From Mycolicibacterium smegmatis (GTDB taxonomy: Bacteria; Actinomycetota; Actinomycetes; Mycobacteriales; Mycobacteriaceae), in assembly GCF_001457595.1 (NCBI RefSeq), contig NZ_LN831039.1, positions 390,001-422,000 of the forward strand: a stretch of 32,000 bases of DNA. The letters are read 5' to 3'. Below are positions 5,863 to 31,507 of the stretch, piece after piece. The translations under genes and the position numbers were made by a program. The stretch's first letter is position 1, and each line of letters starts with the position of its first letter. Under the pieces are notes generated by a model that ran no database searches, was not told the DNA's origin, and worked only from the letters and a program-made list of their open reading frames with translations.

Positions 5863-5906
5863 ACGTGTAACGGAGGCGTCCGGGGGGTCGATAGACGAGT
5901 AGCTCC

Positions 5907-5942
5907 GTGTTGCCGTCTGACCCCCCGACCCGACGGCAACAC
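5907..5942 (+). terminator. 11-bp perfect inverted repeat GTGTTGCCGTC / GACGGCAACAC with a 14-nt C-rich loop
   Basis: Read directly from the sequence. It is the second of several hairpins in the 5813-6177 spacer. Confidence 0.3.
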
Positions 5943-8204: not shown

Positions 8205-8351
8205 TTGAACCATTCCTTTGCGGGCCGGGGCTTGGGCGTCCCCTGTAGATTCCCTGTGCGCGCCGCCGAAGTCTGCGCCGTTGTCCCCCAAACCGGGGGC
8301 ACGCTGGCGGTAGATCCCGATGGGTGCCAGCGGGTAGTCCCGCGGTGAACG

Positions 8352-9941: not shown

Positions 9942-10044
9942 CACGCCACCTCCAGCGCCCGCCGGCGAGTAGTTTGATCGGTCGGAGCGGGCATACCCGT
10001 TTCTCTGATCACCTAGCCGCATGCCGTGGAACGAGGATGAGGGA

Positions 10045-11067: not shown

Positions 11068-11134
11068 CGGACACCTTGCGTGCAGATCCGGACATCGGCA
11101 GGCGACGGACGCGGAAGCGAACCACGCTGATGGC

Positions 11135-13295: not shown

Positions 13296-13480
13296 GCGCG
13301 AGTTATCGTGCGGCGCATACCGATTGCGTATCCGCTGGGCAACGGTCTGATACGCCAGTGCCAGTCATGGTTTACTCTTCAGGACCAGGCTGCGCCCCCC
13401 CGTGGTGCCGCGCGCTGCGATCCCGTCGCAGCAGTGATGTTGGGTGTGGATAGGGGAGGAGATCTACGATTTTTCGGCTC

Positions 13481-13900
13481 GTGAGGCGGCTGTGGATTCC
13501 GCTGTTGGTGATTGCGGTGGTCGCCGTTGGCGGCTTCACCGTCTCGCGGTTGCACAACGTCTTCGGCGCCGAGAAGCGTGTGGCGTATTCAGACACCAAA
13601 GCCACCGACTCCAAGCCCTTCAATCCCAAGAAACTGGTTTACGAGGTTTTCGGTCCTCCCGGCACCGTCGCGAGTATCAGCTACTTCGATGAGAATTCCG
13701 ACCCGCAGTTCGTCGAGGGTGTCAGCCTGCCCTGGGTCCTGGAATTCGACATCAACAAGGCCACCGCCGTCGGAAGCCTCATGGCCCAAGGCGACAGCAG
13801 CAGTATCGGGTGCCGTATCAAAGTTGACGACGAGGTCAAGGCCGAGAAGGTCTCGAATCAGACAAACGCCTTCACCTCCTGCCTGTTGAAGGCCGCATGA
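13481..13900 (+). CDS. mmpS4: MmpS4-family membrane protein
   Basis: [69 protein letters not shown] aligns along its whole length with my recollection of M. tuberculosis MmpS4. The stop overlaps the mmpL4a start (ATGA). Confidence 0.9.
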
Positions 13901-16779
13901 GCGAGACGACAGTGACTCAGGACCAGCAGCGCAGGCCGCGGATCGCCTCGTTCATCCGCCGGTTCTCAGTCCTGATCATCCTGGCCTGGATCGGCGTGGC
14001 GGTCGTGGCGACAGTCGTGATCCCTCCACTCGAAGTCGTCGAGCGTGAGCACTCGGTCTCGCTGAGCCCCGCGGATGCCCCGTCGGTGAAGGCCATGAAA
14101 CAGATGGGCATCCTGTTCGAGGAGTCGAACTCCGAGAGCATCGCCGTCCTGGTCCTCGAGGGACAGGATCGGCTGGGCGACGACGCCCACGCGTACTACG
14201 ACAAGATCATCGACCAGCTCGAAGCTGACACCGAGCACGTCCAGCACGTCCAGGACTTCTGGGGTGACCCGCTGACGGCGGGCGCCGCGGAGAGCGCCGA
14301 CGGCAAGGCTGCCTACGTCCAGCTCAACCTGCACGGCAGCTTCGGCCAGGCAGAGGGCACGGCATCGGTGCGTGCCGTCCAGGACATTGTCAAGAACACT
14401 CCCGCGCCGGAAGGTGTGACGGCATACGTCACAGGACCGGCCGCGATCGTCGCGGATATGGGCCAGAGCGGCAACCGCACGGTCCTGCTCATCACCCTGG
14501 TCACCGTCGGCGTCATCTTCCTGATGCTGCTCCTGCTCTACCGCAGGCTGCTCATCGTGCTGATCCTGTTGGCCACTGTCGCAATCGAGCTGCAGGTGGC
14601 GCGCGGCCTGGTCGCGTTCCTCGCATTGCACGGCATTGTCGGCTTGACCACCTACGTGGTGAACCTGCTCGTTTCGGTCGGTATCGCGGCAGGTACCGAC
14701 TACGGCATCTTCTTCGCTGGCCGCTATCAGGAGGCACGGCAGGCCGGCGAGGACCGGGAACAGGCTTTCTACACCTCGTTCAGCGGTGTGGCGAAGGTCG
14801 TCCTGGCCTCGGGTGCGACGATCGCCGGTGCCATCGCGTGCCTCAGTTTCACCCGGCTGCCCTACTTCCAGCCGCTCGGTATTCCTGGCGCGGTCGGTAT
14901 CGCGGTCGCCGTCGCGGTCGCACTCACTTTGGTTCCGGCCTGTATCGCTGCGACCAACCGTTTCGGCTGGTTCGACCCGAGACGTCTGGTGACCACGCGT
15001 CGTTGGCGGCGTATCGGGACAGCCGTGGTGCGGTGGCCGGCGCCGATCCTCATCGCGTCGATCGCCGTGGCGGTGATCGGCTTGTTGACGCTGCCCGGTT
15101 ACAACCCGAGCTACAGCGACCAGAAGTACATCCCGCAGGACATCCCGGCAAATCAGGGGTACGCGGCAGCGGCACGGCACTTCCCCGAGTCGAAGATGAC
15201 GACGCCGGACATCCTGCTGGTCGAGTCCGATCACGACATGCGGAACTCGGCCGATCTGCTCGTGCTGAACAAGCTGGCGAAAGCGGTCTTCGCGGTTCCC
15301 GGTGTTGCGAACATCCAGTCGGTGACGCGGCCTGAGGGCAAGCCGATCGAACACACGTCGATCCCGTTCATGCTCAGCATGTCCAACGCCAGCCAGCGGC
15401 TGAGCCTGCCATTCCAGCAGCAGCGCATGGAGGACATGCTCAAGCAGGCCGACGAGATGGCGACGACCATCGCGCTGATGCAACGTATGTATGCGTTGAT
15501 GCAGGAGATGGTCGGGATCACGCACCGGACGGTCGAGACGACCCATGAGGTGCACGCCACCATGGGCGAATTGCGCGACAACATCGCTGATTTCGACGAT
15601 TTCTGGCGTCCGCTGCGCAACTACCTCTACTGGGAAAAGCACTGCTACAACATCCCGCTGTGCTGGTCGATCAGATCCATCTTCGATGCGCTCGACGGCG
15701 TCAACGAGGTGACCGACAAGATGGGCGAGTTGGTCGAGAACCTCGATCGCCTCGACGAGTTGATGCCGCAGATGCTCCTGCAGTTCCCGCCCATGATCGC
15801 GACGATGCAGAACACGCGCGCGATGATGCTGACGATGCACGCGACGATGTCCGGCATCTTCTCGCAGATGGACGAGACCACTGAGAACGCGACGGCCATG
15901 GGTAAGGCCTTCGACCAGGCCAACAACGATGATTCGTTCTACCTACCGCCCGAGGTACTCGAGAACGACGATTTCAAACGCGTCATGGAGATCTTCCTGT
16001 CTCCCGACGGCAAGGCCGCGCGCATGTTGATCACCCAGCGCAGCGACCCGGCGACGCCGCAAGGCATTGCGCTCGTCGAACCGATCCGTATCGCGGCCGA
16101 GGAGGCCCTGAAGGGCACACCGCTCGAGAGCGCGAACATCTACCTCGCCGGAACGGCGGCGGGCGTGAAGGATCTGGTCGACGGTTCGAAGATCGACCTG
16201 ATGATCGCCGGTGTCGCCGCGCTCTGCCTGATCTTCATCATCATGCTGATAATGACGCGCAGCTTCGTGGCCGCGCTGGTCATCGTCGGCACGGTGGCTA
16301 TGTCGCTAGGCGCGTCGTTCGGCCTGTCGGTTCTGGTCTGGCAGCACCTTCTCGGCATCCAGATCAACTGGGTCGTGCTGGCGATGTCGGTCATCGTCTT
16401 GTTGGCGGTCGGGTCCGATTACAACCTGCTGCTCGTCTCCCGCATGAAGGAAGAGATCGGCGCAGGACTGAACACCGGCATCATCCGGGCGATGGGTGGG
16501 ACCGGAAAGGTCGTCACCGCAGCAGGTTTGGTGTTCGCGGCCACGATGGCGTCGATGATCGTCAGCGATCTTCTGACCATCGGCCAGGTGGGTACCACGA
16601 TCGGTCTCGGCCTGTTGTTCGACACCCTCATCGTGCGTGCCTTCATGGTCCCGTCCATTGCAGCGCTGCTCGGGCGCTGGTTCTGGTGGCCGCAGCGCGT
16701 GCGGCAGCGCCCGGCGAGCGCCATGCTCCGCCCGATCGGGCCCCGACCGCTCGTTCGTTCGCTGCTGCTGAGGGACTAG
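13897..16779 (+). CDS. mmpL4a: RND-superfamily lipid transporter MmpL4a
   Basis: The 960-aa product has 12 predicted TM stretches in two blocks, the conserved GTDYGIFF and [15 protein letters not shown] proton-relay motifs, and a large soluble insert with a coiled-coil-like region. It is translationally coupled to mmpS4. Confidence 0.9.
16223..16250 (+). repeat. 28-nt stretch identical between mmpL4a and mmpL4b (copy 1)
   Basis: tctgcctgatcttcatcatcatgctgat also occurs at 19138-19165. The two genes are tandem paralogs, and their 3' thirds are highly similar at the nucleotide level. Confidence 0.9.
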
Positions 16780-16789
16780 CGAAACCTGT

Positions 16790-19775
16790 ATGAGCACTGA
16801 GCTGAACACCGAGCAACGGGATCGCCCGTTCGTCGCGCGGGTGGTACGGGCGCTGGCGCCCTTCATCGTTCTGGGATGGCTGATCCTCATCCTCGTGACG
16901 ACACTCGCTGCCGTGGGCGGTGATTGGGCTTCTGCCATCCCAGCGCTCGAAAAGGTGGGCGAGAAGAACTCGGTCTCCCTGATGCCGCAGGACGCCCCGT
17001 CCGCACAAGCGATCAAGCGCATGGGGCAGAAGTTCGAGGAGTCCGACTCCGACAGCTTCGCGATGATCGTGCTGGAGGGCACCGAACCGCTCGGCGAGGA
17101 TGCCCACAACTACTACGCCGACCTGGTCCGTGACCTGCGCGCCGACACGCGTCACATCGAGCACGTCCAGGATCTCTGGGGCGATCGTCTCACTGCGTCG
17201 AGCGCACAGAGCGCCGACGGCAAGGCCTCCTATGTCCAGCTGAATCTGGCAGGCGATCAAGGAACCCCACTGGGTGACGAGTCGGTCGCGGCGGTCCGAG
17301 ATCTCGTCAACCGGAGCAACCCGCCCGAGGGCGTCTCGGTCTACGTCACCGGTGCGACACCGCTGGTTTCCGACCTGCAGCACAGCGGTAACCGCTCGAT
17401 CTTGAAGATCACCGCGGTGACGGTCGTGGTCATCTTCACGATGCTTCTTCTCGTCTATCGATCGGTGATCACGGTTATTTTGCTGTTGATCATGGTGGGG
17501 TTCGAGGTGGCGGCCGCCCGCGGCATCGTGGCCTTCCTCGGTGCCAACGACGTGTTCGTCCTGTCGACATTCGCCGTCAACATGCTGGTGTTCCTCGCGA
17601 TCGCAGCGGGCACGGATTACGGCATCTTTTTCTTCGGCCGCTACCAGGAGGCACGCCAACTCGGCGAGGACCGAGAAACGGCCTACTACAGCATGTATCG
17701 GGGCGTCGCCCCGGTTGTGATGGCATCCGGGCTGACCATCGCGGGTGCGATTTTCTGCCTGACCTTCACGCGGCTTCCTTACTTCCATACAATGGGCGTC
17801 CCGTGCGCCATCGGCATGGCTGTCGCTGTGGCCGCTGCTGTCACGCTCGTGCCAGCAGGTGTCGCCATGGCCAGCAGGTTCGGCTTGCTGGATCCCAAGC
17901 GCAAGATGCGGGTGCGGCGCTGGCGGGGAATCGGTACCGCTATCGTGCGGTGGCCTGCGCCCATCCTGGTCGCGTCGCTGGCCGTCGCACTCGTGGGTCT
18001 GCTGGCGCTGCCCGGCTACCAGACGAGTTACAACGACCGTGACTACATCCCCCCCGGACATCCCGGCGAACGCGGGTTTCGCCGCGGCCGACCGGCACTT
18101 CTCGCAATCACGGATGACGCCCGACATCGTCATGGTCGAAGCGGACCACGACCTGCGGAACCCGGCAGACTTCCTCGTTCTCAACAAAGTTGCCAAGGCG
18201 ATCTTCAAGGTGCGCGGCGTATCTCGTGTCCAGGGCATTACGCGGCCAGAGGGCACGCCGATCGAACGAACGTCGATCCCGTTTCTGCTGAGCCTGCAGA
18301 GCGCCGGACAGGTGCAGGCCACCAACTTCCAGAAACAGCGCATCGACGACATGCTCAAACAGGCCGACGACATGGCGACGATGATCGCTGTGATGAAGCG
18401 GTCCTACGGCGTGATGCTGGAACTCGCCGCGACCACCCATTCGATGGTCGAGAGCACGAAAGAACTACAGAACGTCGCCAAGGATCTGCGCGGCTACCTC
18501 GCGGTCTTCGACGACTTCCTACGTCCGATCCGCAACTACTTCTACTGGGAAGACCACTGCTACAACATCCCCATATGTTGGTCGCTGCGTTCGATTTTCG
18601 ACGCGATGGACAAGGTCGATCACCTCAATGACCAGATCGACATCCTCGTCGAGAACATGGAAGATCTGGACGCCCTGCTGCCCCAGTTGATCGCGCAATT
18701 CCCCGAGATGATCGCCGTCATGGAGAACATGCGGACGATGACTCTCACCACGCACAGCACGTTCTCCGGGATGCTCAAGCAGTTGGACGAACAGACCGAG
18801 GACGTCACCGCGATGGGGCAGGCGTTCGACGCCGCCAAGAATGACGACTCATTCTTCCTGCCACCAGAGGTTTTCGACAACCCGGATTTCAAACGGGCGA
18901 TGACCTCATTCCTGTCGCCCGACGGAAAGGCCGCGCGGTTCATCATCTCCCACAACGGGGATCCGGCCAGCCCGGAGGGAATCGCCAGAGTCGGCCAGAT
19001 CCAGACAGCAGCAGAGGAGGCGCTCAAGGGCACTCCGTTGTCAGGGGCGCAGGTCTATCTGGCCGGTACCGCTCCTACCGCCAAGGACTGGCAGACGGGC
19101 TCCACCTACGACCTGTTGATCGCGGGTATCGCAGCCATCTGCCTGATCTTCATCATCATGCTGATCGTCACCCGCAGCTTCATCGCGGCACTGGTGATCG
19201 TGGGTACTGTCGTGCTCTCGCTGGGCGCATCGTTCGGTGTGTCGGTGCTGCTGTGGCAGTACATTCTGGGCATCCATCTGCACTGGATGGTGCTCGCGAT
19301 GTCGGTCATCATCTTGTTGGCGGTGGGGTCCGACTACAACCTGCTACTGGTCTCCCGCATGAAGGAGGAGATCGGCGCAGGCTTGAACACCGGGATCATC
19401 CGGGCGATGGGTGGCACCGGCAAGGTCGTCACCACGGCCGGCGTGGTGTTCGCGGCGACGATGGCCGCGATGGTGGTCAGCGATCTGCGGATCATCGGTC
19501 AGATCGGCACCACCATCGGCCTCGGCCTGTTGTTCGACACCATGATCGTGCGGTCGTTCATGACACCATCGATCGCGGCGCTGCTCGGGCGTTGGTTCTG
19601 GTGGCCGCAGAGGGTGCGGCCACGTCCCGCGAGTACGCTCCTGCGCCCGTACGGGCCGCGACCGCTGGTGCGCGCACTGCTCGAAGGCCCACCGCCCGGT
19701 GACGAGACCCCCGGTGACCAAGGGGGTCGACCCTCCGACGACGACACACCGATCGGTCCGCTGCGGACCCGGTGA
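16790..19775 (+). pseudogene. mmpL4b: MmpL4b transporter gene interrupted by a +1 frameshift in a C7 tract (18049-18055)
   Basis: ORF 16790-18631 is MmpL-like only up to ..[16 protein letters not shown] and is nonsense afterwards. ORF 17859-19775 becomes MmpL-like exactly from ..[17 protein letters not shown]. The paralog mmpL4a reads [12 protein letters not shown] across this point. Removing one C restores a single ORF of about 994 aa. Confidence 0.85.
19138..19165 (+). repeat. 28-nt stretch identical between mmpL4a and mmpL4b (copy 2)
   Basis: Same 28-mer as 16223-16250. Confidence 0.9.
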
Positions 19776-19841: not shown

Positions 19842-20180
19842 TCAGTACTTGACGCAGCTGGTCAGCATCTGCTGGAACACCGGTAGCGCCACATTGGCGC
19901 CGGGATTGTTCTTGATCTGGTTCAGCAGGTTCACACGCTGGTCGCGGGGTGAAGCCAAGAACACCCTGATGAACTCGATGTTCGCCGGGTACTTGTCGAG
20001 ATACTGAGCGGCCATGGGGTTTTCCGTGCGCACAGCGGTCATCGCCTGGTCGAAGTTGCAAGGCGAGTCGATCAGCGGTGTGACATCCGGTTCAGCTGAC
20101 GCAACTCCGGCCGCTGCGCCCAGCGACAGTGCCGCAGCACCCACGGCGACGCCAAGCCTCGTAAGCGATTTCTTGATCAT
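19842..20180 (-). CDS. Secreted hemophore-related protein, TB8.4 (Rv1174c)/Rv0203 family
   Basis: The start at MIKKSLTRLGVAVGAAALSLGAAAGVASA (signal peptide) is preceded by AAGGAGG. The mature part CNFDQAMTAV..YL..FLASPRDQR..SCVKY parallels TB8.4 (CNYGQVVAAL..YLRNFLAAPPPQR..SCNNY), with both Cys conserved. Confidence 0.8.
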   Translation of the reverse strand: MIKKSLTRLGVAVGAAALSLGAAAGVASAEPDVTPLIDSPCNFDQAMTAVRTENPMAAQYLDKYPANIEFIRVFLASPRDQRVNLLNQIKNNPGANVALPVFQQMLTSCVKY

Positions 20181-20364
20181 GTTGTCCCCTCCTTGAAAAA
20201 ACGATCCATCGAACCCAAGACGTTCAACCAGAAAACGAGGCCTGGCGTTCCACCGACGTGCATCAACTACCACTGACACGTCGGCCTCAAACCTCGCGGG
20301 CTACTACCCATATCTGTGGGCGCATGCCCGGTGTTACAGCAGTATGCCCCTTTCTGTGGGCGGG

Positions 20365-21231
20365 CTACTCTCGATCCAGAAGTTGCAGCAGGTAGTGGCC
20401 GTAGCCGGACTTGAGCAACTCCTTGGCGCGAGTTGCGAGTTGCTCGTCGTCGATGAAACCCGCGCGCCAGGCGATCTCCTCGGGGGCGCCGATCTTCAAT
20501 CCTTGGCGACGCTCGATGGTGCGGACGAAATCACTCGCATCCAACAGAGAGTCGAAGGTGCCGGTATCCAGCCACGCGGTGCCACGCGCGAGCACCTCGA
20601 CCGACAACTCGCCGCGGTCGAGATAGGTCTGGTTTACCTCGGTGATCTCGTACTCCCCACGCGCAGACTTGCTCAGCGACCGCGCTATTTCGATGACGTT
20701 GTTGTCGTAGAAGTACAGTCCCGGCACGGCATAATGGGATTTCGGTGACTTCGGCTTCTCCTCCAACGAAAGAGCAGTGCCGTCAGGACCGAACTCCACC
20801 ACACCGTACGCGGACGGGTTCGCGACCCAATACGCGAAAATGGCTCCGCCGGTGACATTTTGGAATCGCTTCAGGCTCGTTCCAAGGCCGGGGCCGTAGA
20901 AGATGTTGTCGCCGAGCGCAAGTGCGACCGTATCGGTGCCGATGTGGTCCGCGCCGATGACGAAGGCCTGCGCGAGGCCCTCGGGTTCGGCCTGTACGGC
21001 GTACGTAAGGCTGACACCGAACGCGGAACCATCGCCGAGTAGGCGCTGAAACGCCGATGCGTCAGCCGGTGTCGTGATGACGAGGATGTCCCGTATCCCC
21101 GCCATAATCAGCGTGGACAGGGGATAGTAGATCAGAGGTTTGTCGTAGACCGGCAGCAGCTGCTTGCTGACCCCCATGGTGATCGGATGCAGCCGGGTGC
21201 CGGAACCGCCGGCCAGTATTATCCCGCGCAT
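20365..21231 (-). CDS. rmlA: Glucose-1-phosphate thymidylyltransferase
   Basis: [55 protein letters not shown] is the canonical RmlA N-terminus. Length is 288 aa. Confidence 0.95.
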
Positions 21232-21365: not shown

Positions 21366-22331
21366 TCAGGCCCAGGTGCCTCTTCGGCGATGTGCCATCG
21401 CCACGACCTCCAGGATCGGCCGGACGACAGCCGGTTTGACGAGTTTGTTGAGCAGGCCGTCTTGAAAGTGACGATTGCCTTCGTTCATCACGCGGAAATC
21501 GTGCTCTGCAACGCGGAACTGCTCGTACACGCGATCCAGGGTGTCGGTGTCGATGGGCTCATCTCGCCCCGCTGCCCGCAGAACCGCGTAGACCGTCGAC
21601 AACCAGTCGGTACCGAACCGGTCGATAACCGGTTTCTCGCTGCGTTGCCGTCGGAGGCTGGGCGCGAGGAAATCGTCGACTGCCTGTTCGTCGGGCGGGG
21701 TGAGGTCCACGTTCAACGCGGTGGACACGCGTTTCACCTCGCGGCGCCAGTCATCGATCATGTTCGGGTAGTCGACGACGACCCGGGGCACGTCACGGGT
21801 GTGCCGCTCTGACAGAAGGTTTCCCTTGAGCCATAGTCCCGCCGTCAATTCCGGCGGGGCCTTTGCCGCCGCGGCGAGCGAACTCGCTACCTCCCCGGGA
21901 TGGCGCACAGGGATGACGACCGCGATGTCATATCCCGCCGCGCGGGCGGCCTCGAACCACATGTCGTAGAGAACAACGATCTGGAGGTCCTTGACGACGA
22001 CGACGTCGGATTTCGGCAACTTGGCAATGAATGGTTCGATCTTGGCCATACAGGCCGCCCGCTCCTTGCCGACGTACTGTTCTTCCTCGGTGAGGCGGAG
22101 CGTCGGATCCCACCAGGCGCTCCCGTGGCGGTCGAGTATCGAGCGATTGAGCAGGAGGGATTCCCGCGGTTCCCAGTAGCCGCGTGGATTCGATTTGTCC
22201 GCGCCCATCATCTTGGTGGGTAGCGCGGCCCCGCACAACGACAGAACGCGGGTGAGCGCGGACGATCCGGACCGGCCCATGCCGAGGACGAAGAGGATCA
22301 CTGGACGCGTTCGCGTGCCGTTGCCGGTCAT
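21366..22331 (-). CDS. Sulfotransferase-family protein (PAPS-dependent)
   Basis: The 321-aa product starts at MTGNGTRTRPVILFVLGMGRSGSSALTRVL, a 5'-PSB P-loop-like GxGRSGSS. This is followed by NPRGYWEP and a VIPVRHPGEVASSL segment (3'-PB-like). The N-terminal extension in the ORF track (to 22544) is rejected. Confidence 0.7.
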   Translation of the reverse strand: MTGNGTRTRPVILFVLGMGRSGSSALTRVLSLCGAALPTKMMGADKSNPRGYWEPRESLLLNRSILDRHGSAWWDPTLRLTEEEQYVGKERAACMAKIEPFIAKLPKSDVVVVKDLQIVVLYDMWFEAARAAGYDIAVVIPVRHPGEVASSLAAAAKAPPELTAGLWLKGNLLSERHTRDVPRVVVDYPNMIDDWRREVKRVSTALNVDLTPPDEQAVDDFLAPSLRRQRSEKPVIDRFGTDWLSTVYAVLRAAGRDEPIDTDTLDRVYEQFRVAEHDFRVMNEGNRHFQDGLLNKLVKPAVVRPILEVVAMAHRRRGTWA

Positions 22332-22643
22332 GAGCGGCTTCCCCCGAACGTTGTGGAAGACCCAGCTGGCGCAGCTGCATGACAACTCGTGTGGGTTGTT
22401 CTGATCATGATTCCCCCGGGTCGTAGAGATACTTTGCGGGGCAGTGCGCCGTCGCCGCTGCCGCTCAGACGGTCCAACATTAGGCCAGGTCTTTTGATGC
22501 CACAGAGCCTTTCGGAAATCAACGGCCATGGGGAACGCGGCCACGACCGCGTGTTCATTGCCGTTTCAAACGGTCCCGCGTACCGCACTGTTGTACAGCG
22601 GAACAAACGGCATACGAAAATTCGAGGCTGTAGCGTGTCGGCC

Positions 22644-23435
22644 ATGTGGAGCTCAGTGATGGGCCTGGCACTCATGGGGACGCTCAATCCGGTGCGTCTC
22701 GGTGTGCTGCTGCTGCTGATCTCCCGGGAAAAGCCCGCCCAGAACCTGGTCGCGTTCTGGATCGGCTGCCTGACGGTGAGCCTGTTCCTCATTGTCGGGC
22801 CCCTCGTGCTCCTCCATTTCACGCCGTTGTTCGATTCCTTCTCCGACCGTCTGGCGGCCCCGTCGGACAAGTCGCGGTTCGCACATCTACAGGTCGGTAT
22901 CGGACTGTTCGCGTTGTTCATCGCCGCGGCGATCCTGGCGCGCGCCCGTTTACGCCGACGCGCGGCTGTCCGGCAGCCGGAGGAGCGTATGGCGCCTGCC
23001 TCCGGCCATGGGCCCGGTGCGATGGTGGCGTCGGGCGCTTTCGGCGACACCGAGCGATCCGGCGTGTTGAAGGGGTCGTCACACCGCCTGGTGACGAGGG
23101 CACGGGACGCCTGGAACAGCGGGACCCTGTGGGTGGCTTTCGTGGTGGGCCTCGCGATGGGGCCGGCGCCGGAGATCGTCCTCATCGTGTTGGCCGTCAT
23201 CGTGACATCGGGTGCGGCCGCATCGGTTCAGCTCGGTGCGGCAGTCGTCTACATTGCCGGCGTGCTGGCGGTCGTCGAGATCGTCTTGATCAGCTACGTG
23301 CTGGCGCCCGCGCGCACCGAACCGGTGCTGCGCAAGCTACGCGAGTGGGCGCTGGTGCACCGCCTGCACGTCCTGGTTGTCATCTTCACGGTGGTGGGTC
23401 TGTCGAGTCTGATCCGGGGGTTGAGCGTCATCTGA
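22644..23435 (+). CDS. GAP/Sap-family integral membrane protein (glycolipid-addressing protein-like)
   Basis: MWSSVMGLALMGTLNPVRLGVLLLLISREKPAQNLVAFWIGCL.. is followed by two TM bundles separated by a charged loop, the architecture of the mycobacterial Gap (GPL) and Sap (sulfolipid-1) addressing proteins. Alternative starts are GTG 22635 and ATG 22659. Confidence 0.6.
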   Translation: MWSSVMGLALMGTLNPVRLGVLLLLISREKPAQNLVAFWIGCLTVSLFLIVGPLVLLHFTPLFDSFSDRLAAPSDKSRFAHLQVGIGLFALFIAAAILARARLRRRAAVRQPEERMAPASGHGPGAMVASGAFGDTERSGVLKGSSHRLVTRARDAWNSGTLWVAFVVGLAMGPAPEIVLIVLAVIVTSGAAASVQLGAAVVYIAGVLAVVEIVLISYVLAPARTEPVLRKLREWALVHRLHVLVVIFTVVGLSSLIRGLSVI

Positions 23436-23739: not shown

Positions 23740-24546
23740 TTGACTGTGACTCACCGCGACAGCCGATCCGCGTATCTCGACCTGCTCCGGCGGGACCTGA
23801 CCCGCTACGGGAGCGACGAGTTGGTCCCCGTGGGGTGGGGTTTGCTGCACCGTCCGCTGTTCAAGCTCGGCAACCTCATGCTCGTACGGAAGCGTGCCTT
23901 CGATTCACGCAAGCGCGACCTGGGCTTGGACTGGCCTGCCGACGCTCTGACGATGATCGGGATGAAGCGGCTCACGAGCCTGCAGGAATGCGTCGAAACC
24001 GTGCTCGCCGAGGACGTCCCCGGCGACCTGGTCGAGTGTGGGGTGTGGCGAGGCGGGGCGTCCATCCTCATGCGCGCGGTGTTGTCCGCGTACGGTGACG
24101 AGACCCGTCGGGTGTGGCTCGCGGATTCCTTCCAGGGTGTGCCCCCGCCGGACGCCGAGAAGTACGCGGCGGACAAGGGCGACCGGCTGCATCGTGCGGC
24201 GCCGATTCTCGCGGTCTCCGAAGCGGACGTCAGGGCCAACTTCGAGCGTTACGGTCTGCTGGACGACCAGGTCCGTTTCCTGCCGGGTTGGTTCAAGGAC
24301 ACTCTGAATGACGCCCCGATCGAACAGATTGCGGTGCTCCGGCTCGATGGTGATCTCTACGAGTCCACGATCCAGGCTCTTGACGGTCTTTACCGCCGCC
24401 TGTCGCCGAGGGGTTTCTGCATCATCGACGACTACCACGCCATCGACGGATGCAAGAAGGCGGTGACGGACTTCCGTGCGGCACACGGGATCTCCGCAGA
24501 CATCGTCGAGATAGACGGGACGGGCGTGCTCTGGCGCAAGGAGTGA
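23740..24546 (+). CDS. TylF/macrocin-type SAM-dependent sugar O-methyltransferase (GPL rhamnosyl O-methyltransferase-like)
   Basis: DWPADALTMIGMKRL..LVECGVWRGGASILMR..VWLADSFQGVP..LRLDGDLYESTIQALDGLYRRLSPRGFCIIDDY are TylF-family hallmarks. The TTG start has AGGAGA 13 nt upstream. Confidence 0.8.
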   Translation: MTVTHRDSRSAYLDLLRRDLTRYGSDELVPVGWGLLHRPLFKLGNLMLVRKRAFDSRKRDLGLDWPADALTMIGMKRLTSLQECVETVLAEDVPGDLVECGVWRGGASILMRAVLSAYGDETRRVWLADSFQGVPPPDAEKYAADKGDRLHRAAPILAVSEADVRANFERYGLLDDQVRFLPGWFKDTLNDAPIEQIAVLRLDGDLYESTIQALDGLYRRLSPRGFCIIDDYHAIDGCKKAVTDFRAAHGISADIVEIDGTGVLWRKE

Positions 24547-24613
24547 GCGCCGAGCCCACCGCGGCAGGCGGCCGGCGGCGCACCCGGATCCTTCTGAAAG
24601 GCTTTGACTCCAG

Positions 24614-25882
24614 ATGAAATTCGTGATGGCCACCTACGGGACCAGAGGTGATATCGAGCCATCTCTGGTCGTAGGCCGCGAGCTGTTGCGCCGCGGGCAT
24701 GACGTGCGAATGGCTGTCGCACCCGACTCTGTGGATTTCGTCGAGGCTGCAGGTGTCCCGGCCGTGCCATTCGGCTTGGACACCCGCACCTGGCTGAACG
24801 TCTATCGCAACTTCTGGAATTCGGTCTTCAAGGAATTCTGGAAGATCAACGAACTGCGGGCGCTGTGGAAAGAGCTGTGGGAGCGCAGCGACGAGAGTTG
24901 GGCGCAGATGAGCGCCACGCTGACCGAGGTGGCGGCCGACGCCGATGTGCTCTTCGCGGGACAGGCCTACCAGGAGACGGCCGCCAACGTCGCTGAACAC
25001 TTCGACATTCCTCTGGTCACGCTTCATCATGTGCCGGTACGGCCGAACGGACGACTGGTGCCGATCTTGCCTCCTCTGCTCGGGCGTACGGCGATGAAAG
25101 GCTTCGATTGGTTCACCTGGTTGCTGAACAAGAAGGTCGAGGACGCGCAGCGGAGGGAACTCGGCTTGCCGAAGGCGCGGATCCCGTCGACCCAGCGGAT
25201 CGGCAACCGTGAGTCGCTGGAGATCCAGGCCTACGACGAGGTGTGTTTCCCGGGCCTGGCCGCCGAATGGGCGAAATGGGGGGAGTTACGCCCCTTCGTC
25301 GGCGCCCTGACGATGGAGCTGTCGACGGAGGTCGACGGCGAGGTCTCGGACTGGATCGCGGCCGGGACGCCCCCGATCTGTTTCGGTTTCGGCAGCATGC
25401 CGGTGGAGTCGCCGAGGGACACCGTGGAGATGATCAGTACGGCGAGTGCGTTGTTGGGCGAGCGCGCCCTGATCTGTGCTGGCTACAGCGATTTCAGCGG
25501 GGTCCCGACTTACGACCATGTGAAAGTCGTGGGCGCGGTGAACTATGCGGCCATCTTCCCGTCGTGTCGTGCGGTGGTGCACCATGGCGGGTCCGGAACC
25601 ACGGCGGCGAGCATGCGTGCGGGCGTCCCGACATTGATCCTCTCCATGGATGCAAACCAGACATTGTGGGGTTCGCAGGTCAAGAAGCTCAAAGTTGGTA
25701 CGACCCGTAGATTCTCCGCGACGACCAAGGATACGTTGATCACCGATCTGCGACGTGTCCTCGATCCGGCGTGCGCCGAGCGTGCGAAAACTCTCGCCCT
25801 GCAGATGACCAAGCCGGCCGACGGTGTTCGGCGCGCGGCGGATCTGGTCGAGAATTTCGCGCGAGTGAGAAGTGCTGCCTGA
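24614..25882 (+). CDS. GT1-family glycosyltransferase (GPL Gtf-type, MGT/UDP-glycosyltransferase fold)
   Basis: N-terminus MKFVMATYGTRGDIEPSLVVGRELLRRGHDV and the C-terminal donor-binding motif VVHHGGSGTTAASMRAGVPTLILSMDANQTLWG. The 422-aa length matches the mycobacterial Gtf1-3 class. Which gtf it is cannot be decided by eye. Confidence 0.85.
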   Translation: MKFVMATYGTRGDIEPSLVVGRELLRRGHDVRMAVAPDSVDFVEAAGVPAVPFGLDTRTWLNVYRNFWNSVFKEFWKINELRALWKELWERSDESWAQMSATLTEVAADADVLFAGQAYQETAANVAEHFDIPLVTLHHVPVRPNGRLVPILPPLLGRTAMKGFDWFTWLLNKKVEDAQRRELGLPKARIPSTQRIGNRESLEIQAYDEVCFPGLAAEWAKWGELRPFVGALTMELSTEVDGEVSDWIAAGTPPICFGFGSMPVESPRDTVEMISTASALLGERALICAGYSDFSGVPTYDHVKVVGAVNYAAIFPSCRAVVHHGGSGTTAASMRAGVPTLILSMDANQTLWGSQVKKLKVGTTRRFSATTKDTLITDLRRVLDPACAERAKTLALQMTKPADGVRRAADLVENFARVRSAA

Positions 25883-25941
25883 TCGGCCCGCCGATGTCGT
25901 CGCGGCCTTTCAGAATGTGGAATCCTGAGCGGAAAAGGTAG

Positions 25942-26943
25942 ATGTCCGAAATCAGCAAAGAATGCCGGATGTGTGGGTCCGCGGGACCACATCGGACGGT
26001 CACCGTCCGCGAGATGTATTACGGCACCCGCGAACTGTTCGAGTACTATGTCTGCGCCGACTGCGAGACGCTGCAGATCGTGGATGTGCTCGAAGGTGAG
26101 GAACTCGCTCGCCACTACCCGCGGAAGTACTACTCGTACAACGCTTCCCAGGGGGCCGGTGTGCTCCAGTGGTTGACCAGACAACGAGATCGTCATGACC
26201 TGGGCGAGGGCACACAGCCAGTCGGTGCCCTCATCGCCGCTCTGCCGCCTGGCATTCGCTCGCTCATCGGCACAAACGACGCGAGCGGTGATGTTGTCGG
26301 GATGCTCGGTCAGTTGGGTGTGGGGCGTGAGGCGCGGATCCTCGATGTCGGATGTGGCGGCGGTGCCCTACTCGACCGGTTGGCGAGAGCGGGCTTCCGT
26401 AACCTGTTCGGGGCCGATCCCTTCGTCGATGCGGACACCACCACATCAATGGGTGTGCCGATCGCCAAACAGTTCATGGAGGACGTGGCCGGCGAGTTCG
26501 ATGTGATCATGTTCAACCATTCGCTCGAACACGTACCGGACCCGGTTTCGACTTTGAAAGCCGCGCGCGCCCGGCTCGCGTCCGGTGGTATCTGTGTGGC
26601 ACGGGTGCCCACGACGTCTTCGGAAGCGTGGGATGTCTACGGGAAGAACTGGTGTCTGATCGATGCGCCCAGGCACACGGTGGTGCCGTCACGGCGTGGA
26701 ATGGCGCGGGCCGCCGAAGCGGTCGGTATGCAATTGGAGCGGACGATCGACGATTCGAATGCGTCCCAGTTCTTCGGCAGCGAGATGTACCGCACCGACA
26801 CCGCACTGACCGAGGCCGGCGGCTTCGGCTATCTCTTCAAGACTTTCGGCGTGAAGCGCGTCTGGGACTGGGAGCGACGTTCGATCGCGCTCAACCGGCA
26901 AGGACGCGGCGATCAGACAGGGTTCATCCTGCGCGCGAGATGA
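25942..26943 (+). CDS. Class I SAM-dependent methyltransferase with N-terminal Cys4 zinc ribbon
   Basis: CRMCGS..x..CADCETLQ zinc ribbon, SAM motif I ILDVGCGGGALLDRLARAGF and motif VIMFNHSLEHVPDP. SD GGAAAAGG lies upstream of the ATG. Confidence 0.75.
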   Translation: MSEISKECRMCGSAGPHRTVTVREMYYGTRELFEYYVCADCETLQIVDVLEGEELARHYPRKYYSYNASQGAGVLQWLTRQRDRHDLGEGTQPVGALIAALPPGIRSLIGTNDASGDVVGMLGQLGVGREARILDVGCGGGALLDRLARAGFRNLFGADPFVDADTTTSMGVPIAKQFMEDVAGEFDVIMFNHSLEHVPDPVSTLKAARARLASGGICVARVPTTSSEAWDVYGKNWCLIDAPRHTVVPSRRGMARAAEAVGMQLERTIDDSNASQFFGSEMYRTDTALTEAGGFGYLFKTFGVKRVWDWERRSIALNRQGRGDQTGFILRAR

Positions 26944-27040
26944 ATTCGGGGTAGGCCCGGATAGGATCCCCCCGGCCGCACGCCCTGTGGCGGGCACGTA
27001 TGTGCACAAACTGGAGAACATCGAAGGAAAGGCCTCGACC

Positions 27041-28123
27041 GTGGCAAAGTCCGTGCTCATCACTGGTGGAGCGGGGTTCATCGGCTCGTTGCTTTCACGT
27101 CGGCTCGTTGAAGCAGGTTACGAAGTCGCGGTGACCGATGTCTTCCTTCCCCAGGTGCACGGGGAGCGACGGAAGGCCGACCTGCCGTCGTCGGTCCGAC
27201 TGTTCACCAGCGACGTCACACATGCTCCTGACTGGGACGCCGTACTGCGGCTGTTCCGCCCGGATCAGGTGGTCCACCTGGCCGCAGAAACGGGTACCGC
27301 ACAGTCCCTTTCGCAAGCGACACGACACGGCTCGGTGAACGTCGTCGGCACCACCCAGCTCCTCGACGCGTTGAGCCGTGCCGACCTGGTGCCGGAGCAG
27401 ATCGTCGTCGCGTCGTCGCGGGCTGTCTACGGTGAAGGCGCATGGCGAAGCGGCACCGAGGTCTTCTACCCGAAACCACGAAGCCATGCCCAGCTGGCAG
27501 CAGGCATCTGGGACCCCGTGGGGCCCACTGATACCCCTGCGGTGCATCTGCCCAGCCGTGCGGGCGTGACCCAGCCTAGGCCGACGAACATCTACGGGGC
27601 CACCAAACTCGCCCAGGAGCACCTCCTGGCGGCTTGGACATCCGCGCATGACAGCGCGCTCAGTGTGTTGAGGCTGCAGAATGCATACGGCCCCGGCCAG
27701 TCCCTCACCAATCCCTACACCGGTGTTGTTCCGTTCTTCGCGCGGGTCTCACGTGAGGGGCGCGCATCGGAGGTGTACGAAGACGGCCTCATCATCCGGG
27801 ACCTCGTCTACATCGACGATGTCATCGACGCGCTCTTCGCCGCGGTGGACAGGCCTGCGGCAGAGTCGCGACACGTGGACATCGGCTCCGGTATCGGCGT
27901 CACGATCCATGATCTGGCGCGCAAGATCGCGGCGGCGTTCGACGCACCTGAGCCTGTGGTGGTCGGCAAGTTCCGCGACGGCGACATCCGGGCCGCGAGT
28001 GCCGACATCGAACCGGCGCAGCGGGAACTGGACTGGGCACCCAAGTGGGGACTAGACGACGGTCTCCGGTCCCTGCTGGACTGGATCAACGAACAACACG
28101 AGCTGTCCGCCCGCAACAACTGA
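27041..28123 (+). CDS. NAD(P)-dependent extended-SDR sugar-nucleotide epimerase/reductase
   Basis: VLITGGAGFIGS Rossmann motif and catalytic YGATK (Y-x3-K). The GTG at 27041 (VAKSVLITGG) with GGAAAGG upstream is preferred over the 26987 start in the ORF track. Confidence 0.8.
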   Translation: MAKSVLITGGAGFIGSLLSRRLVEAGYEVAVTDVFLPQVHGERRKADLPSSVRLFTSDVTHAPDWDAVLRLFRPDQVVHLAAETGTAQSLSQATRHGSVNVVGTTQLLDALSRADLVPEQIVVASSRAVYGEGAWRSGTEVFYPKPRSHAQLAAGIWDPVGPTDTPAVHLPSRAGVTQPRPTNIYGATKLAQEHLLAAWTSAHDSALSVLRLQNAYGPGQSLTNPYTGVVPFFARVSREGRASEVYEDGLIIRDLVYIDDVIDALFAAVDRPAAESRHVDIGSGIGVTIHDLARKIAAAFDAPEPVVVGKFRDGDIRAASADIEPAQRELDWAPKWGLDDGLRSLLDWINEQHELSARNN

Positions 28124-28376
28124 ATGTTCGCGTTGTCGGCCGCTGATGCGCTGACGGCGATCACTCACGGGAAATCGGCTGATCAGTGCCTTGGTTGACA
28201 GGACGAATCAGGTTGCCAGTTTCGACCGCCGCGGGTGGCTTGCCCGGACGATGGCTGTGAGTACGGTTTTTCCTGCGCGAGGCTGGGATTCGCCCTACTA
28301 GGATTCGTCCTGTTTGATATTGAGGATTCGGCAGTGGTAGCTACCGTCGGATTCATCAGGCGGCGCGGGAGGATCC

Positions 28377-29474
28377 GTGCGGATGAAGGCGGGGACGATG
28401 AAGCTGGGGCAGGTTTTCGATCCGCGTAACAACGCGTTGAACGCCTTCCGCCTCGCATTGGCGGCAGAAGTCATTCTCTGGCATTCGTTCCCCATCACGG
28501 GCCGCATGCCCCCCGAACCCGTACTGCAGGTTCTGTTCTCGGTCGGTGTCGACGGATTCTTTGCCATCTCAGGGTTTCTCATCACGCGGAGCTGGTTGAC
28601 CAACCCCCAGATCCGTGACTACCTCCTCGCGCGTGCCCTACGAATCCTCCCCGGCTTCTACGTATGTCTCATCGTGACCGCCTTCGTGTTCGCGCCGCTC
28701 TATCTCGCGACCCACGGCGACTCGGTCGCCAAGGTGTTCGGAACTTCGGCGCCGTTCGAGTTCATTCTCAAGAACAGCGGATTGATCTATATCCAGCGTG
28801 ACATCGCGGGTACGCCCTACGACATCCCCGACCACATGGCCGGCTGGAACGCGTCGCTGTGGTCGTTGATCTGGGAAGTGATGTGCTACATCATCGTTGC
28901 GATCCTGGGGTTGATCGGGCTGGCCAAGCGGCGATGGACATCCGTGGTGATTCTGTGTCTCGCGCTGGTCGGCGCGAACTTGTTCCCGCCGCTCACCTTC
29001 CCCGGCGTGTGGACCATCCCCCAGCTCATGATGCGCTGCGCGATCATGTTCGCGGCCGGCGCGATGATGTATCAGTGGCGTGGCGTCATCCCGGCCCGAT
29101 GGTCCCTGGTTGCGGTGTGTGTGGTGATCGTGTTCGCGGCGGGCCTGATGCCCGACTACCGCATCCTCGGCGGCGTCCCACTGGCCTATGCCGTGATCGT
29201 GGCGGGCTCGCTCATCAAGGCCAAGCGGTTGAACCTCCGCACGGATCTGTCCTACGGCCTCTACATTTACGCCTTCCCGATTCAGCAGTTGCTCGCGGGT
29301 CTGGGGCTGGTGTTCCTCCATCCGGTGGCATTCTTCGCCGTATCCACAGCCGCCACGCTGCCTTTTGCCGCGCTGAGTTGGTTCATCGTCGAGAAGCGCG
29401 CCATGGCCCTCAAACACCGGGCCAGGATGAAGAGGGCGGCGACTTCGCCGCAGGTCGAACCTCAGCCTGGTTGA
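28377..29474 (+). CDS. Acyltransferase-3 family integral membrane O-acyltransferase (GPL Atf-like)
   Basis: N-terminal NALNAFRLALAAEVILWHSFPITG, about 10 TM segments and the overall length fit Acyl_transf_3. The start is ambiguous (GTG 28377, ATG 28383 or ATG 28398; GGGAGGA at 28366-28372). Confidence 0.8.
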   Translation: MRMKAGTMKLGQVFDPRNNALNAFRLALAAEVILWHSFPITGRMPPEPVLQVLFSVGVDGFFAISGFLITRSWLTNPQIRDYLLARALRILPGFYVCLIVTAFVFAPLYLATHGDSVAKVFGTSAPFEFILKNSGLIYIQRDIAGTPYDIPDHMAGWNASLWSLIWEVMCYIIVAILGLIGLAKRRWTSVVILCLALVGANLFPPLTFPGVWTIPQLMMRCAIMFAAGAMMYQWRGVIPARWSLVAVCVVIVFAAGLMPDYRILGGVPLAYAVIVAGSLIKAKRLNLRTDLSYGLYIYAFPIQQLLAGLGLVFLHPVAFFAVSTAATLPFAALSWFIVEKRAMALKHRARMKRAATSPQVEPQPG

Positions 29475-29648
29475 ACCGGACCGCTTCACGTAGGGTTCGC
29501 CGCGCACAGCAATTACCCTGCTCGTCAGAATGCGCTACGAGCGAAAATTTGCGAGCCGGCCATCTCCTCACAGTAGGCTGGCTGTCACCGCGCGGACCGC
29601 TCGTGCACAGCGGCCGGATTCGCTTGAGCAACAGAGGGAATCAATATA

Positions 29649-30461
29649 ATGCCTATGTTCCGGCCGGTTTTCCTGCCGAGGCCGCCGTTCATCTTCCGTC
29701 GGTACCCGTTCAAGGGTCGCAAACAAATGCTGGCCGCACTCGGCTCGGACCTGGCCCGCCCGGTGGTCATGCGACGAGACGATTCTCCTCCCGGGGAAAC
29801 AGCGATCGGGAAGATTTTCGACAAGTCCGAACATATCCACAAGCTGCGTCACTACCTGCCGATCTATGAACGCTTCCTGCCCGGAGCCGAGCGGATGCTT
29901 GAGATCGGCGTCGATCGAGGGGGATCCCTCAAGATGTGGCGAGAATTCCTGCCCGACACCACGATCGTCGGTCTCGACATCAACCAGAACTCCGCGCAGT
30001 TCGACGACCCGGAACGGGATGTCCACGTCCGGATCGGCGATCAGACCGACACGAGCTTCCTCAGCAGCGTCGACGACGAGTTCGGGCCGTTCGACGTGAT
30101 CCTCGACGACGGTGGCCATACGCCCAACCAGATGATCTCTTCGTTCCAGTTCCTGTTCCCGAGACTGAAGCCGGGCGGCGTGTACCTTGTGGAGGACGTG
30201 TGCGCGAACTACTGGATGGGTTATCGCGATCGTCCCGACACGTTCATCGACTTCACGAAAACGCTCATGGATGCCATACACGCGCCATACATGGCGCTGC
30301 GCTCACCATTCGACTTCATGGAGGAGCATCCAGATCGCGTCGACCACGTGCAGGTTCCGTTCGCGGCGACGATTGTCGACAGCATCCAGGTGTTCGACTC
30401 GGTGGTTGTCGTCCATCGGTCGAAGGAGCCGAAGCCGTTGCCGCGGACGGTGTATCGGTAG
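29649..30461 (+). CDS. Class I SAM-dependent sugar O-methyltransferase (TylE/MycE-like)
   Basis: FDKSEHIHKLRHYLPIYERFL..MLEIGVDRGGSLKMWREFLPDTTIVGLDIN..FDVILDDGGHTPNQ..LKPGGVYLVEDV. GAGGGA lies 9 nt upstream of the ATG at 29649. Confidence 0.75.
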   Translation: MPMFRPVFLPRPPFIFRRYPFKGRKQMLAALGSDLARPVVMRRDDSPPGETAIGKIFDKSEHIHKLRHYLPIYERFLPGAERMLEIGVDRGGSLKMWREFLPDTTIVGLDINQNSAQFDDPERDVHVRIGDQTDTSFLSSVDDEFGPFDVILDDGGHTPNQMISSFQFLFPRLKPGGVYLVEDVCANYWMGYRDRPDTFIDFTKTLMDAIHAPYMALRSPFDFMEEHPDRVDHVQVPFAATIVDSIQVFDSVVVVHRSKEPKPLPRTVYR

Positions 30462-30630
30462 ACCCGACAACCTTCGGGTTTGCCGAGCTGGTCCTCGTTG
30501 TCCATTGAGCGTCGTCGGCGGATTCTTTGTCCGATCGCTGCGTTAGCTTGTCGGGTGTGCGTGTGGGAGTGTACTGCCCGAATTGCCGTGGCGGCAAGAG
30601 CAATCGGACTGGGCCAGGGAGTGCCGTGCG

Positions 30631-31488
30631 GTGAAGTTGCTGCAGCATCGGCGTTGTCTCCACGGCGAAGCGATGTGCCGCGGTGTTATGGTTGCCGCCG
30701 TGCCGACTCGATTGTCGTTTCCCGCCCGTCTGAAGATGTTGGCCGTACGTGGCGAATATTGGCTCGCGCGCACCATTTTGCGGGACGTGTATTCGAACGA
30801 TGCGTTGATCACGTTCAATACGCATGCGTTCATGGAAGATCCGGATTTCCAGCGCGCGTACGAGCGCGGTGCGAAGGCACTCGGCGACATGGACTGGTAT
30901 CAGTGGCACTGGCGCGTGCACGTGGGGCTGTGGGCGGCAGCGAGTGCGAGCAAACTCGAGGGTGACTTCGTCGAATGTGGCGTCAGCTATGGCTTTCTGA
31001 GCAGCGCCATCATGGAGTACCTCGACTGGAACAGTCTCGAAAAGACGTTCTATCTTCTCGACACCTTCACCGGGTTGGATCCGCGGTACGTATCAGCGGT
31101 CGAGCGCGAATCGGGTGCCCTTGAGACGAGCGAGGCGCACCTGCGTGACGGTCTATATGTCGATTCCGTCGACAGCGTCCGCGCCAACTTCTCGGAATGG
31201 AAAAACCATCGGATCATCGTCGGTGCTGTCCCCGACACGCTCGATCAGGTCGATGCCGAAAAAGTGGCGTACCTGCACATCGACATGAACTGCGCGCCTC
31301 CTGAGGTCGCCGCGCTGCGCTACTTCTGGCCCCGCCTGACGCCCGGCGCGTTCGTCCTCCTGGACGACTACGCCAACAGGGGCCGTGAGGAGCAGCGCAT
31401 CGCCATGGACGAGGTCGCGAAAGAACTCGGCGTGATGGTCTGCACCCTGCCCACGGGGCAGGGGCTGATCATCAAACCGGCAGCCTGA
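30631..31488 (+). CDS. TylF-like class I SAM-dependent methyltransferase
   Basis: FVECGVSYGFLSSAIMEYL..FYLLDTFTGLDP..LHIDMNCAPPEVAALRYFWPRLTPGAFVLLDDY. The start is uncertain: GTG 30631 has AGGGAG 9 nt upstream, and alternatives are 30583, 30673, 30688 and 30736. Confidence 0.7.
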   Translation: MKLLQHRRCLHGEAMCRGVMVAAVPTRLSFPARLKMLAVRGEYWLARTILRDVYSNDALITFNTHAFMEDPDFQRAYERGAKALGDMDWYQWHWRVHVGLWAAASASKLEGDFVECGVSYGFLSSAIMEYLDWNSLEKTFYLLDTFTGLDPRYVSAVERESGALETSEAHLRDGLYVDSVDSVRANFSEWKNHRIIVGAVPDTLDQVDAEKVAYLHIDMNCAPPEVAALRYFWPRLTPGAFVLLDDYANRGREEQRIAMDEVAKELGVMVCTLPTGQGLIIKPAA

Positions 31489-31507
31489 CCGTCGGCACCG
31501 CGGGCCC

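Follow-up and report, generated by a model that had tools for sequence, protein, structure and literature searches.

The window analysed here is a stretch of 32,000 nucleotides from Mycolicibacterium smegmatis (contig NZ_LN831039.1, positions 390,001 to 422,000 of the forward strand; the coordinates below count from its first letter), and the present analysis concerns two divergent genes within it, named here stf and gapL, which lie in a glycopeptidolipid (GPL) locus. The stf gene (21366-22331, minus strand, with an ATG start at 22331) encodes a soluble sulfotransferase-like protein of 321 residues with the N-terminus MTGNGTRTRPVILFVLGMGRSGSSAL, probably a divergent member of the family Sulfotransfer_3 (Pfam PF13469), and gapL (22644-23435, plus strand) encodes a 263-residue integral membrane protein of the Gap/Sap family (Pfam SfLAP, PF11139) with the N-terminus MWSSVMGLAL. 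The two starts are separated by an intergenic region of exactly 312 bp (22332-22643), to which no strand is assigned and whose sequence was read directly. A preliminary description of this DNA had placed here a minus-strand gene for a sulfotransferase of the type that uses 3′-phosphoadenosine 5′-phosphosulfate (PAPS), recognised by a GMGRSGSS loop, in the same orientation as rmlA and a TB8.4-like gene, divergent across 312 bp from its neighbour and embedded in the GPL locus; a sulfotransferase-like gene with this loop and all of these features of the gene arrangement were recovered. The reading preferred here, for which the balance of probability is just favourable, is that Stf is a GPL-tailoring sulfotransferase and that GapL beside it is a general export accessory.

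The ATG at 22331 is the start supported by homologues within a longer open reading frame (ORF; 21366-22544, minus strand), and the public gene calls on an identical contig (L081) likewise give products of 321 and 263 residues. Longer ORF versions of 392 and 348 residues were rejected, as both the homologues and the public gene calls favour the shorter starts; the alternative starts of gapL (a GTG at 22635 or Met6) would shift the 312-bp figure by a few bases only. The identical contig belongs to the draft assembly GCA_029222015.1 (100% identity to the window), and the 7.06-Mb complete chromosome CP089233.1 shares 99.56% identity with the window. The closest named relatives of both Stf and GapL are M. 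goodii proteins, at 80-89% identity. The guanine and cytosine (GC) content amounts to 0.67-0.70 at window positions 1-11000 and to 0.59-0.65 over the GPL locus (11000-32000). Acquisition of the pair as a horizontally transferred islet was rejected, given that its GC content of 0.62-0.63 is the same as that of the rest of the locus.

That the region is a GPL locus is evident from the genes that surround the pair, as the preliminary description had recognised. Upstream lie the transporter genes mmpS4-mmpL4a-mmpL4b (13469-19775, plus strand; Pfam Mycobact_memb and MMPL), followed on the minus strand by a hemophore-related gene of the Rv1174c/TB8.4 type (19842-20183; NCBIfam TIGR04529, 46.3 bits against a cut-off of 32) and by rmlA (20365-21231; glucose-1-phosphate thymidylyltransferase, NCBIfam TIGR01207 at 8.7e-144, above its cut-off, and Pfam NTP_transferase). 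The stf gene shares this strand and is separated from rmlA by about 134 bp. Beyond gapL, Pfam and NCBIfam matches identify a series of plus-strand tailoring genes: a TylF-type O-methyltransferase (23740-24546), a GT1 glycosyltransferase (24614-25882), a class-I methyltransferase of the Methyltransf_23 family (25942-26943), an epimerase/dehydratase (26987-28123), an acetyltransferase of the Acyl_transf_3 family (28377-29474) and two further methyltransferases (29649-30461 and 30583-31488). A partial C-methyltransferase-like gene (31508-31999, minus strand; Methyltransf_14 match at 1.5e-55) closes the window. The gene calls of this downstream part (23740-31999) are identical in the loci L081 to L086.

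The reference GPL locus order given in Table 1 of Ripoll et al. 2007 is mmpS4-mmpL4a-mmpL4b-Rv1174-rmlA-gtf3-rmlB-rmt2-rmt4-gtf1-atf-rmt3-gtf2-fmt (PMC1885439). The gene order of the window agrees with that table, the TB8.4-like gene occupying the position of the reference Rv1174, save that stf and gapL stand in place of gtf3. The peptide synthetase genes mbtH-mps1-mps2 fall past the window end and outside the 10-kb flanks analysed. The same table, which covers the GPL loci of M. smegmatis mc2155, M. abscessus and M. chelonae, contains neither stf nor a Gap-like gene at the gtf3 site (PMC1885439).

The assignment of Stf is the weaker of the two: thin by sequence, the sulfotransferase call is backed by the predicted fold, by the PF13469 matches of the homologues and by invariant motifs of the putative PAPS loops. 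An AlphaFold2 model of Stf built from the family alignment reached a predicted local distance difference test (pLDDT) score of 81 and a predicted template modelling (pTM) score of 0.83. When this model was compared with the PDB by Foldseek, all 17 of the 17 matches at E≤1e-3 were PAPS sulfotransferases, namely the sulfotransferase (ST) domains of olefin synthase (OLS) and CurM, the tyrosylprotein sulfotransferases TPST1/2, Stf1 of M. tuberculosis and the sulfotransferase S4. At the level of the family, PF13469 matches 15 of 18 Stf homologues at E≤0.01 (best 1.6e-6), and this domain is annotated on many database relatives of Stf. Three stretches contain residues that are invariant among the 18 homologues, namely R20-S21-G22-x-S24-A25, W53-E54-P55-R56 and R143-x-P145-x-E147-V148-x-x-S151. 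In the model, the RSG(S/T)SA loop comes after strand 1 and the R143 to S151 stretch after the strand formed by residues 135-142. By the motifs of TPSTs and cytosolic sulfotransferases, R20 to A25 and R143 to S151 would be the 5′-phosphosulfate and 3′-phosphate binding motifs, and E54 is a candidate for the catalytic base. A hydropathy scan revealed no hydrophobic segment in Stf, which is therefore predicted to be cytoplasmic.

Taken with the model, the family data support the view that Stf is a divergent member of the PAPS-sulfotransferase fold that lies outside Stf0 and Stf1. A comparison with the Stf0 to Stf3 proteins, suggested in the preliminary description, gave no sequence similarity to the structures of Stf0 or Stf1: neither 1TEX (Stf0) nor 2ZQ5 (Stf1) was found by phmmer or by the family profile at E≤10. 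As Stf also shares only 16% identity with Stf1 in the Foldseek structural alignment, it is not an orthologue of either protein, and its likeness to M. tuberculosis Stf1 is one of fold (Foldseek match to 2zq5 at E=2e-4).

The evidence that connects Stf to GPL comes from its relatives. One genome per species was scanned with the Stf family alignment, which yielded 176 confirmed relatives; the 80 best of these were retained together with flanks of 10 kb (a scan of genomes with the single Stf protein as query confirmed no relative). GPL-type genes were counted within 10 kb by tblastn with the window proteins. All named organisms among the 80 loci are mycobacteria or mycobacterial metagenome-assembled genomes (MAGs), the window's own species and M. 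goodii not being among those kept. At least one GPL-type gene accompanies stf in 69 of the 80 loci, a GPL-type GT1 glycosyltransferase in 61 and two or more kinds of GPL-type gene in 53. The tightest and most repeated neighbours of stf are sugar genes: GT1 glycosyltransferases, TylF-type O-methyltransferases, epimerases, rmlA and sugar O-acetyltransferases. Across species, the Stf family is strongly tied to GPL-type loci, a correlative result that favours a role in GPL tailoring. The co-occurrence survey envisaged in the preliminary description thus turned out in its favour, with M. peregrinum among the loci that combine the two and members of the M. avium complex among the carriers of the family.

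The position of stf within these loci varies with the clade. In the clade of the window, where stf follows rmlA, the order is rmlA-stf, then divergently gapL and the tailoring genes; it comprises M. aquaticum, M. brisbanense, Mycobacterium sp. 852013-50091, a MAG and one lineage carrying a Gap-like protein with the NCBI label M. smegmatis. In the M. fortuitum group (M. peregrinum, M. houstonense, M. setense and others) stf follows mmpL4b in the order mmpL4a-mmpL4b-stf-x-gtf-gapL-gtf-x-gapL. In slow growers resembling the M. avium complex (M. colombiense, M. mantenii, M. scrofulaceum, M. europaeum) it lies between atf and an epimerase gene, in the order atf-stf-stf-epimerase-TylF-gtf-gtf. M. 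peregrinum carries stf in the two loci L070 and L077, and a further protein search found members of the family in M. marseillense, M. intracellulare and M. paraintracellulare; in M. intracellulare stf forms a tandem pair at the edge of a glycosylation cluster.

Two observations on these arrangements may be added. The tandem genes of the M. avium-complex-type slow growers are diverged paralogues, with about 52-56% identity to the window protein, and stand between the acetyltransferase and the epimerase; they occur in an M. intracellulare strain (L091, 10001-12268) and in L006, L009, L011, L012, L023, L025, L028, L030, L035, L037 and other loci. In one of the two M. peregrinum loci (L070, 11023-12441, plus strand) an ORF of 472 residues with no Pfam match lies between stf and the first glycosyltransferase gene. 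In the other loci of the M. fortuitum group stf and the following gtf stand equally far apart (about 1.5-1.6 kb), the content of this stretch having been examined in L070 only.

The distribution of the family may also be set beside GPL chemistry. Sulfated GPLs were reportedly described chemically by Lopez-Marin in 1992 in M. fortuitum bv. peregrinum, and Khoo is said to have found them in 1999 in drug-resistant isolates of the M. avium complex, a study of which the existence and title alone were confirmed, through a citation. No sulfation is described for the GPLs of M. smegmatis mc2155, M. abscessus and M. chelonae. The Stf family is present in both groups for which sulfated GPLs are reported and, by Table 1 of PMC1885439, is missing from the three reference loci, an agreement that is correlative.

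GapL can be placed in the Gap/Sap (SfLAP) family securely on its sequence. It matches the Pfam SfLAP profile, with the description 'Sap, sulfolipid-1-addressing protein', over its full length (1-213 of 213) with E=3.2e-42 and 144.8 bits against a cut-off of 35. A Kyte-Doolittle scan predicts six hydrophobic segments (8-26, 39-57, 80-98, 177-195, 198-216 and 245-263) in a 3+3 layout, and the membrane protein of the GAP family named in the preliminary description is borne out on both counts. Between the two halves lies a hydrophilic central loop of about 75 residues (approximately 99 to 176), which is basic, with 12 K/R against 5 D/E. The same 3+3 helix topology has been described for Sap (Rv3821) and for Gap of M. 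smegmatis, in which the central loop is highly variable and has been hypothesised to serve in substrate recognition (PMC3318749). It has been established that Gap is needed for the surface exposure of GPL and that Sap modulates the MmpL8-dependent transport of sulfolipid-1 (SL-1) (PMC3318749; PMC4183827).

GapL thus shares with Gap and Sap the SfLAP family, the size class, the 3+3 topology with a variable hydrophilic central loop and the company of MmpL genes in a surface-lipid locus; its link to export consists in the genomic association with mmpS4, mmpL4a and mmpL4b. Its position is different: in the reference loci gap follows mps2, the gap-like gene follows fadD23/pe and gtf3 occupies the site of the window pair (PMC1885439), whereas gapL lies between rmlA and the tailoring genes. 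The closest named homologues of GapL are M. goodii proteins annotated as 'GAP family protein' (80-87% identity), and it forms a clade with proteins of M. goodii, M. aquaticum, M. brisbanense and M. dioxanotrophicus, apart from the other Gap-family proteins sampled.

The preliminary description had further proposed that the two genes form a dedicated module, in which Stf would sulfate a GPL sugar and a specialised GapL would target the sulfated, anionic species to the surface. The survey bears on this directly. Fewer than 600 bp separate a Gap-like gene from stf in the window and in 14 further loci among the 80 (6 divergent, 8 convergent), and the distance is 2.8-3.0 kb in 12 more, which belong to the M. 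fortuitum group; the adjacency cases are spread over at least 4 stf clades and 3 Gap-like clades. By gene content, mc2155 is without both genes at this site (PMC1885439), and both are present in the window lineage, in M. goodii and in a 7.1-Mb 'M. smegmatis' lineage. The central loop, the part of Gap proteins proposed to recognise the substrate (PMC3318749), is strongly basic in GapL, which also speaks for the module. Against such a module stand the 53 of 80 loci, including all those of the M. avium-complex type, that have no Gap-like gene within 10 kb of stf, and the members L002, L014 and L058 of the stf clade to which the window belongs, all three without such a gene. Gap-family genes are known as accessories of several lipid loci (PMC3318749), and two other Gap-family proteins that were looked up sit beside lipid genes for polyketide synthases and nonribosomal peptide synthetases, with no sulfotransferase. 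A basic cytoplasmic loop is, moreover, ordinary under the positive-inside rule. Since a Gap gene is part of GPL loci in any case, some of the co-location is to be expected, and the dedicated sulfate-and-address module is for this reason a minority reading, which we consider improbable without dismissing it. The adjacency itself is recurrent, in several arrangements, and suggestive, but it is not obligatory.

One of the adjacent pairs deserves separate mention. In M. neumannii (L078, 2286-16695) stf converges with a Gap-like gene across 40 bp, and a similar arrangement occurs in L034 and L061. The M. neumannii locus encodes an epimerase and a rhamnosyl O-methyltransferase beside a FadD-type ligase, two ATP-binding cassette (ABC) exporters and an ABC ATPase, and the 10 kb around stf hold no glycosyltransferase of the GPL type; judged by its gene content, it may be a locus for a different sulfated glycolipid. 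The closeness of the two genes in such a setting speaks for the dedicated module. It also invites the bolder idea that stf and a Gap/Sap gene form a recurrent mobile cassette, plugged into GPL loci and into loci of the FadD, ABC-exporter and rhamnosyl-methyltransferase kind for the making of anionic sulfated lipids, with the basic loop selecting the sulfated species. We think this idea doubtful, to about the same degree as the module. If it were true, Gap proteins would gain a role in substrate selection and new sulfated glycolipids would be expected in many environmental mycobacteria.

The course proposed under the preferred reading, a GPL-tailoring sulfotransferase beside a general export accessory, can be outlined as follows. 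Starting from what was observed (gene structure, family and fold membership, locus context and cross-species association), we infer that Stf is a soluble, cytoplasmic, PAPS-dependent sulfotransferase of a divergent, mycobacteria-wide branch of Sulfotransfer_3, and that it would act as a late tailoring enzyme of the GPL pathway, most likely by transferring sulfate, on the inner side of the membrane, to a hydroxyl that is free on a GPL deoxy-sugar. GapL would help MmpS4, MmpL4a and MmpL4b to carry both sulfated and unsulfated GPL to the surface. The two genes are neighbours in a lineage-conserved arrangement and may share a divergent promoter region, but they do not form an obligatory two-gene unit.

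Several results weigh against this reading. Stf itself scores under the gathering cut-off of PF13469 (E=2.5e-4, 21.8 bits against 27). No match to Stf was found in NCBIfam, and searches of all PDB sequences with phmmer and with hmmsearch, the latter using a profile of the 18 homologues, returned no sulfotransferase at E≤10; the best sequence match, a dihydrodipicolinate reductase at E=0.2, is at chance level. The TM-scores of the Foldseek matches are only 0.39-0.46, and the top structural matches, the CurM and OLS domains, sulfate an acyl β-hydroxyl and not a sugar. No GPL-type gene lies near stf in 11 of the 80 loci, some of which are on short contigs. Finally, mmpL4b is frameshifted in the window and, because of this frameshift, the strain may, if the shift is real, export no GPL, whatever stf does.

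The nature of the top structural matches raises the question of the acceptor. Stf might act on something other than a GPL sugar, such as the 3-hydroxyl of the GPL fatty acyl chain, in the manner of CurM and OLS, a nucleotide-sugar or another envelope glycolipid. The first two Foldseek matches are indeed the β-hydroxyacyl sulfotransferase domains of OLS and CurM, and some Stf homologues occur outside classical GPL loci (L014, L054, L067, L071 and L078). TPST, Stf1 and 3-OST are matched almost as well, however, the closest recurrent neighbours of stf are the sugar genes listed above, and the known sulfated GPLs reportedly bear their sulfate on a sugar. On these grounds, an acceptor of this other kind seems unlikely. 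The best structural matches taken together (CurM and olefin-synthase ST domains and TPSTs, E from 2.4e-6 to 1e-4) have in common with Stf a 5′-phosphosulfate loop of the RSG(T/S)(T/S) type, which probably corresponds to the TPST motif. They are at the same time distant from it, with an identity of 14-20% and TM-scores of about 0.4-0.46. CurM and OLS act on the β-hydroxyls of acyl groups bound to acyl carrier protein and TPSTs on protein tyrosines, whereas Stf sits in a glycolipid locus. Stf is also free-standing and has, according to the model, a helical C-terminal extension of about 90 residues.

The state of mmpL4b (16790-19775, plus strand) raises the further possibility that the pair is silent or decaying in this strain. 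A tblastn comparison places the switch of frame near 18051-18079, and a run of seven C residues lies at 18049-18055, both in the window and in L081; the 99.56%-identical CP089233.1 (sister genome L082) has six C residues and an intact mmpL4b of 994 residues. The extra C could be either a homopolymer mutation of the rough type or an assembly error. With mmpL4b interrupted in two sequences and Stf below its Pfam threshold, the enzyme could be degenerate and inactive. The stf gene is intact, though, and copies 100% identical to it are present on at least 22 contigs; none of the family's invariant PAPS-loop residues has been lost; mmpL4b is intact in sister genomes and the change in the C run may be an error of assembly. 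The third-position GC of stf and gapL (0.77 and 0.79) is normal for coding sequence, and the GC pattern over the codon positions is that of real mycobacterial genes. We therefore hold a silent or decaying pair to be quite improbable.

Returning to the reading of Stf as a tailoring sulfotransferase next to an export accessory, its nearest analogues in working principle are the Stf0/Sap/MmpL8 system of SL-1, the export of GPL by Gap and MmpL4, and Sam10. Stf0 (Rv0295c) and Stf1 to Stf3 act in the sulfation of envelope metabolites, the function that may likewise be proposed for Stf. Stf0 takes the first step, with free trehalose as its substrate, and its gene lies apart from the SL-1 locus (PMC3318749), whereas stf lies inside a lipid locus and its product is proposed to act late. 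Closer in this last respect is Sam10/Stam10, the cluster-encoded, PAPS-using fucose-2-O-sulfotransferase of saccharomicin biosynthesis in an actinomycete, which modifies a deoxy-sugar on the assembled glycoconjugate and not a nucleotide sugar (PMC13291958). Sam10/Stam10 may serve as a working model for late deoxy-sugar sulfation by Stf; producer, scaffold and acceptor differ, and the likeness is one of described function. This is not a new kind of system, as there is precedent both for tailoring sulfotransferases encoded in clusters and for Gap/Sap accessories.

To our knowledge, sulfated GPLs were described decades ago and no gene has been firmly assigned to the sulfation of GPL. In the text collection searched, no paper was found to connect a sulfotransferase with the biosynthesis of GPL; an earlier remark in the older subscription literature (e.g., Mougous 2002) is possible. 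The stf family would offer a concrete candidate for a known modification that awaits its gene, a good candidate because members of the family occur within the GPL loci of dozens of species, and one that is readily testable. If GPL is indeed sulfated by Stf, the modification would place a negative charge on a dominant surface lipid on which colony morphotype, sliding, biofilm formation and host recognition depend, and it could matter for the surface biology and the serotype diversity of non-tuberculous mycobacteria. In addition, gapL contributes a further Gap paralogue to the poorly understood accessory proteins of MmpL transporters.

As regards the 312 bp between the two genes, scans for promoters and terminators gave no signal above shuffle expectation; a single sigma-70-like match (22379-22408, plus strand) does not exceed it either. 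No Rfam family and no notable repeat were found in 22332-22643, and when six syntenic loci were aligned no block resembling an operator proved to be conserved, except for about 12 nt just upstream of the gapL start. Because the alignment and the promoter, Rfam and repeat scans gave nothing specific, no claim is made that stf and gapL share their regulation.

Some further features of the window lie outside the pair. At the left border of the GPL locus in this lineage, immediately upstream of mmpS4, lie an AraC/DJ-1-type regulator gene and the genes for the beta and alpha subunits of a nitrile hydratase (10021-12492, plus strand). At the other end, the C-methyltransferase-like gene that is cut by the window edge is full-length in L081, where its product has 407 residues and matches Methyltransf_13 as well as Methyltransf_14. 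It has no counterpart in the GPL gene table for M. smegmatis, M. abscessus and M. chelonae (PMC1885439), and its family hints at a C-methylated (branched) sugar in the GPL of the window lineage. Outside the locus, two small RNAs exceed the Rfam gathering threshold, F6 at 5896-5953 (plus strand, 72.1 bits) and the M. smegmatis small RNA Ms_IGR-2 at 6007-6089 (plus strand, 103.9 bits), which adjoin each other between a thiolase gene and an FAD-oxidase gene.

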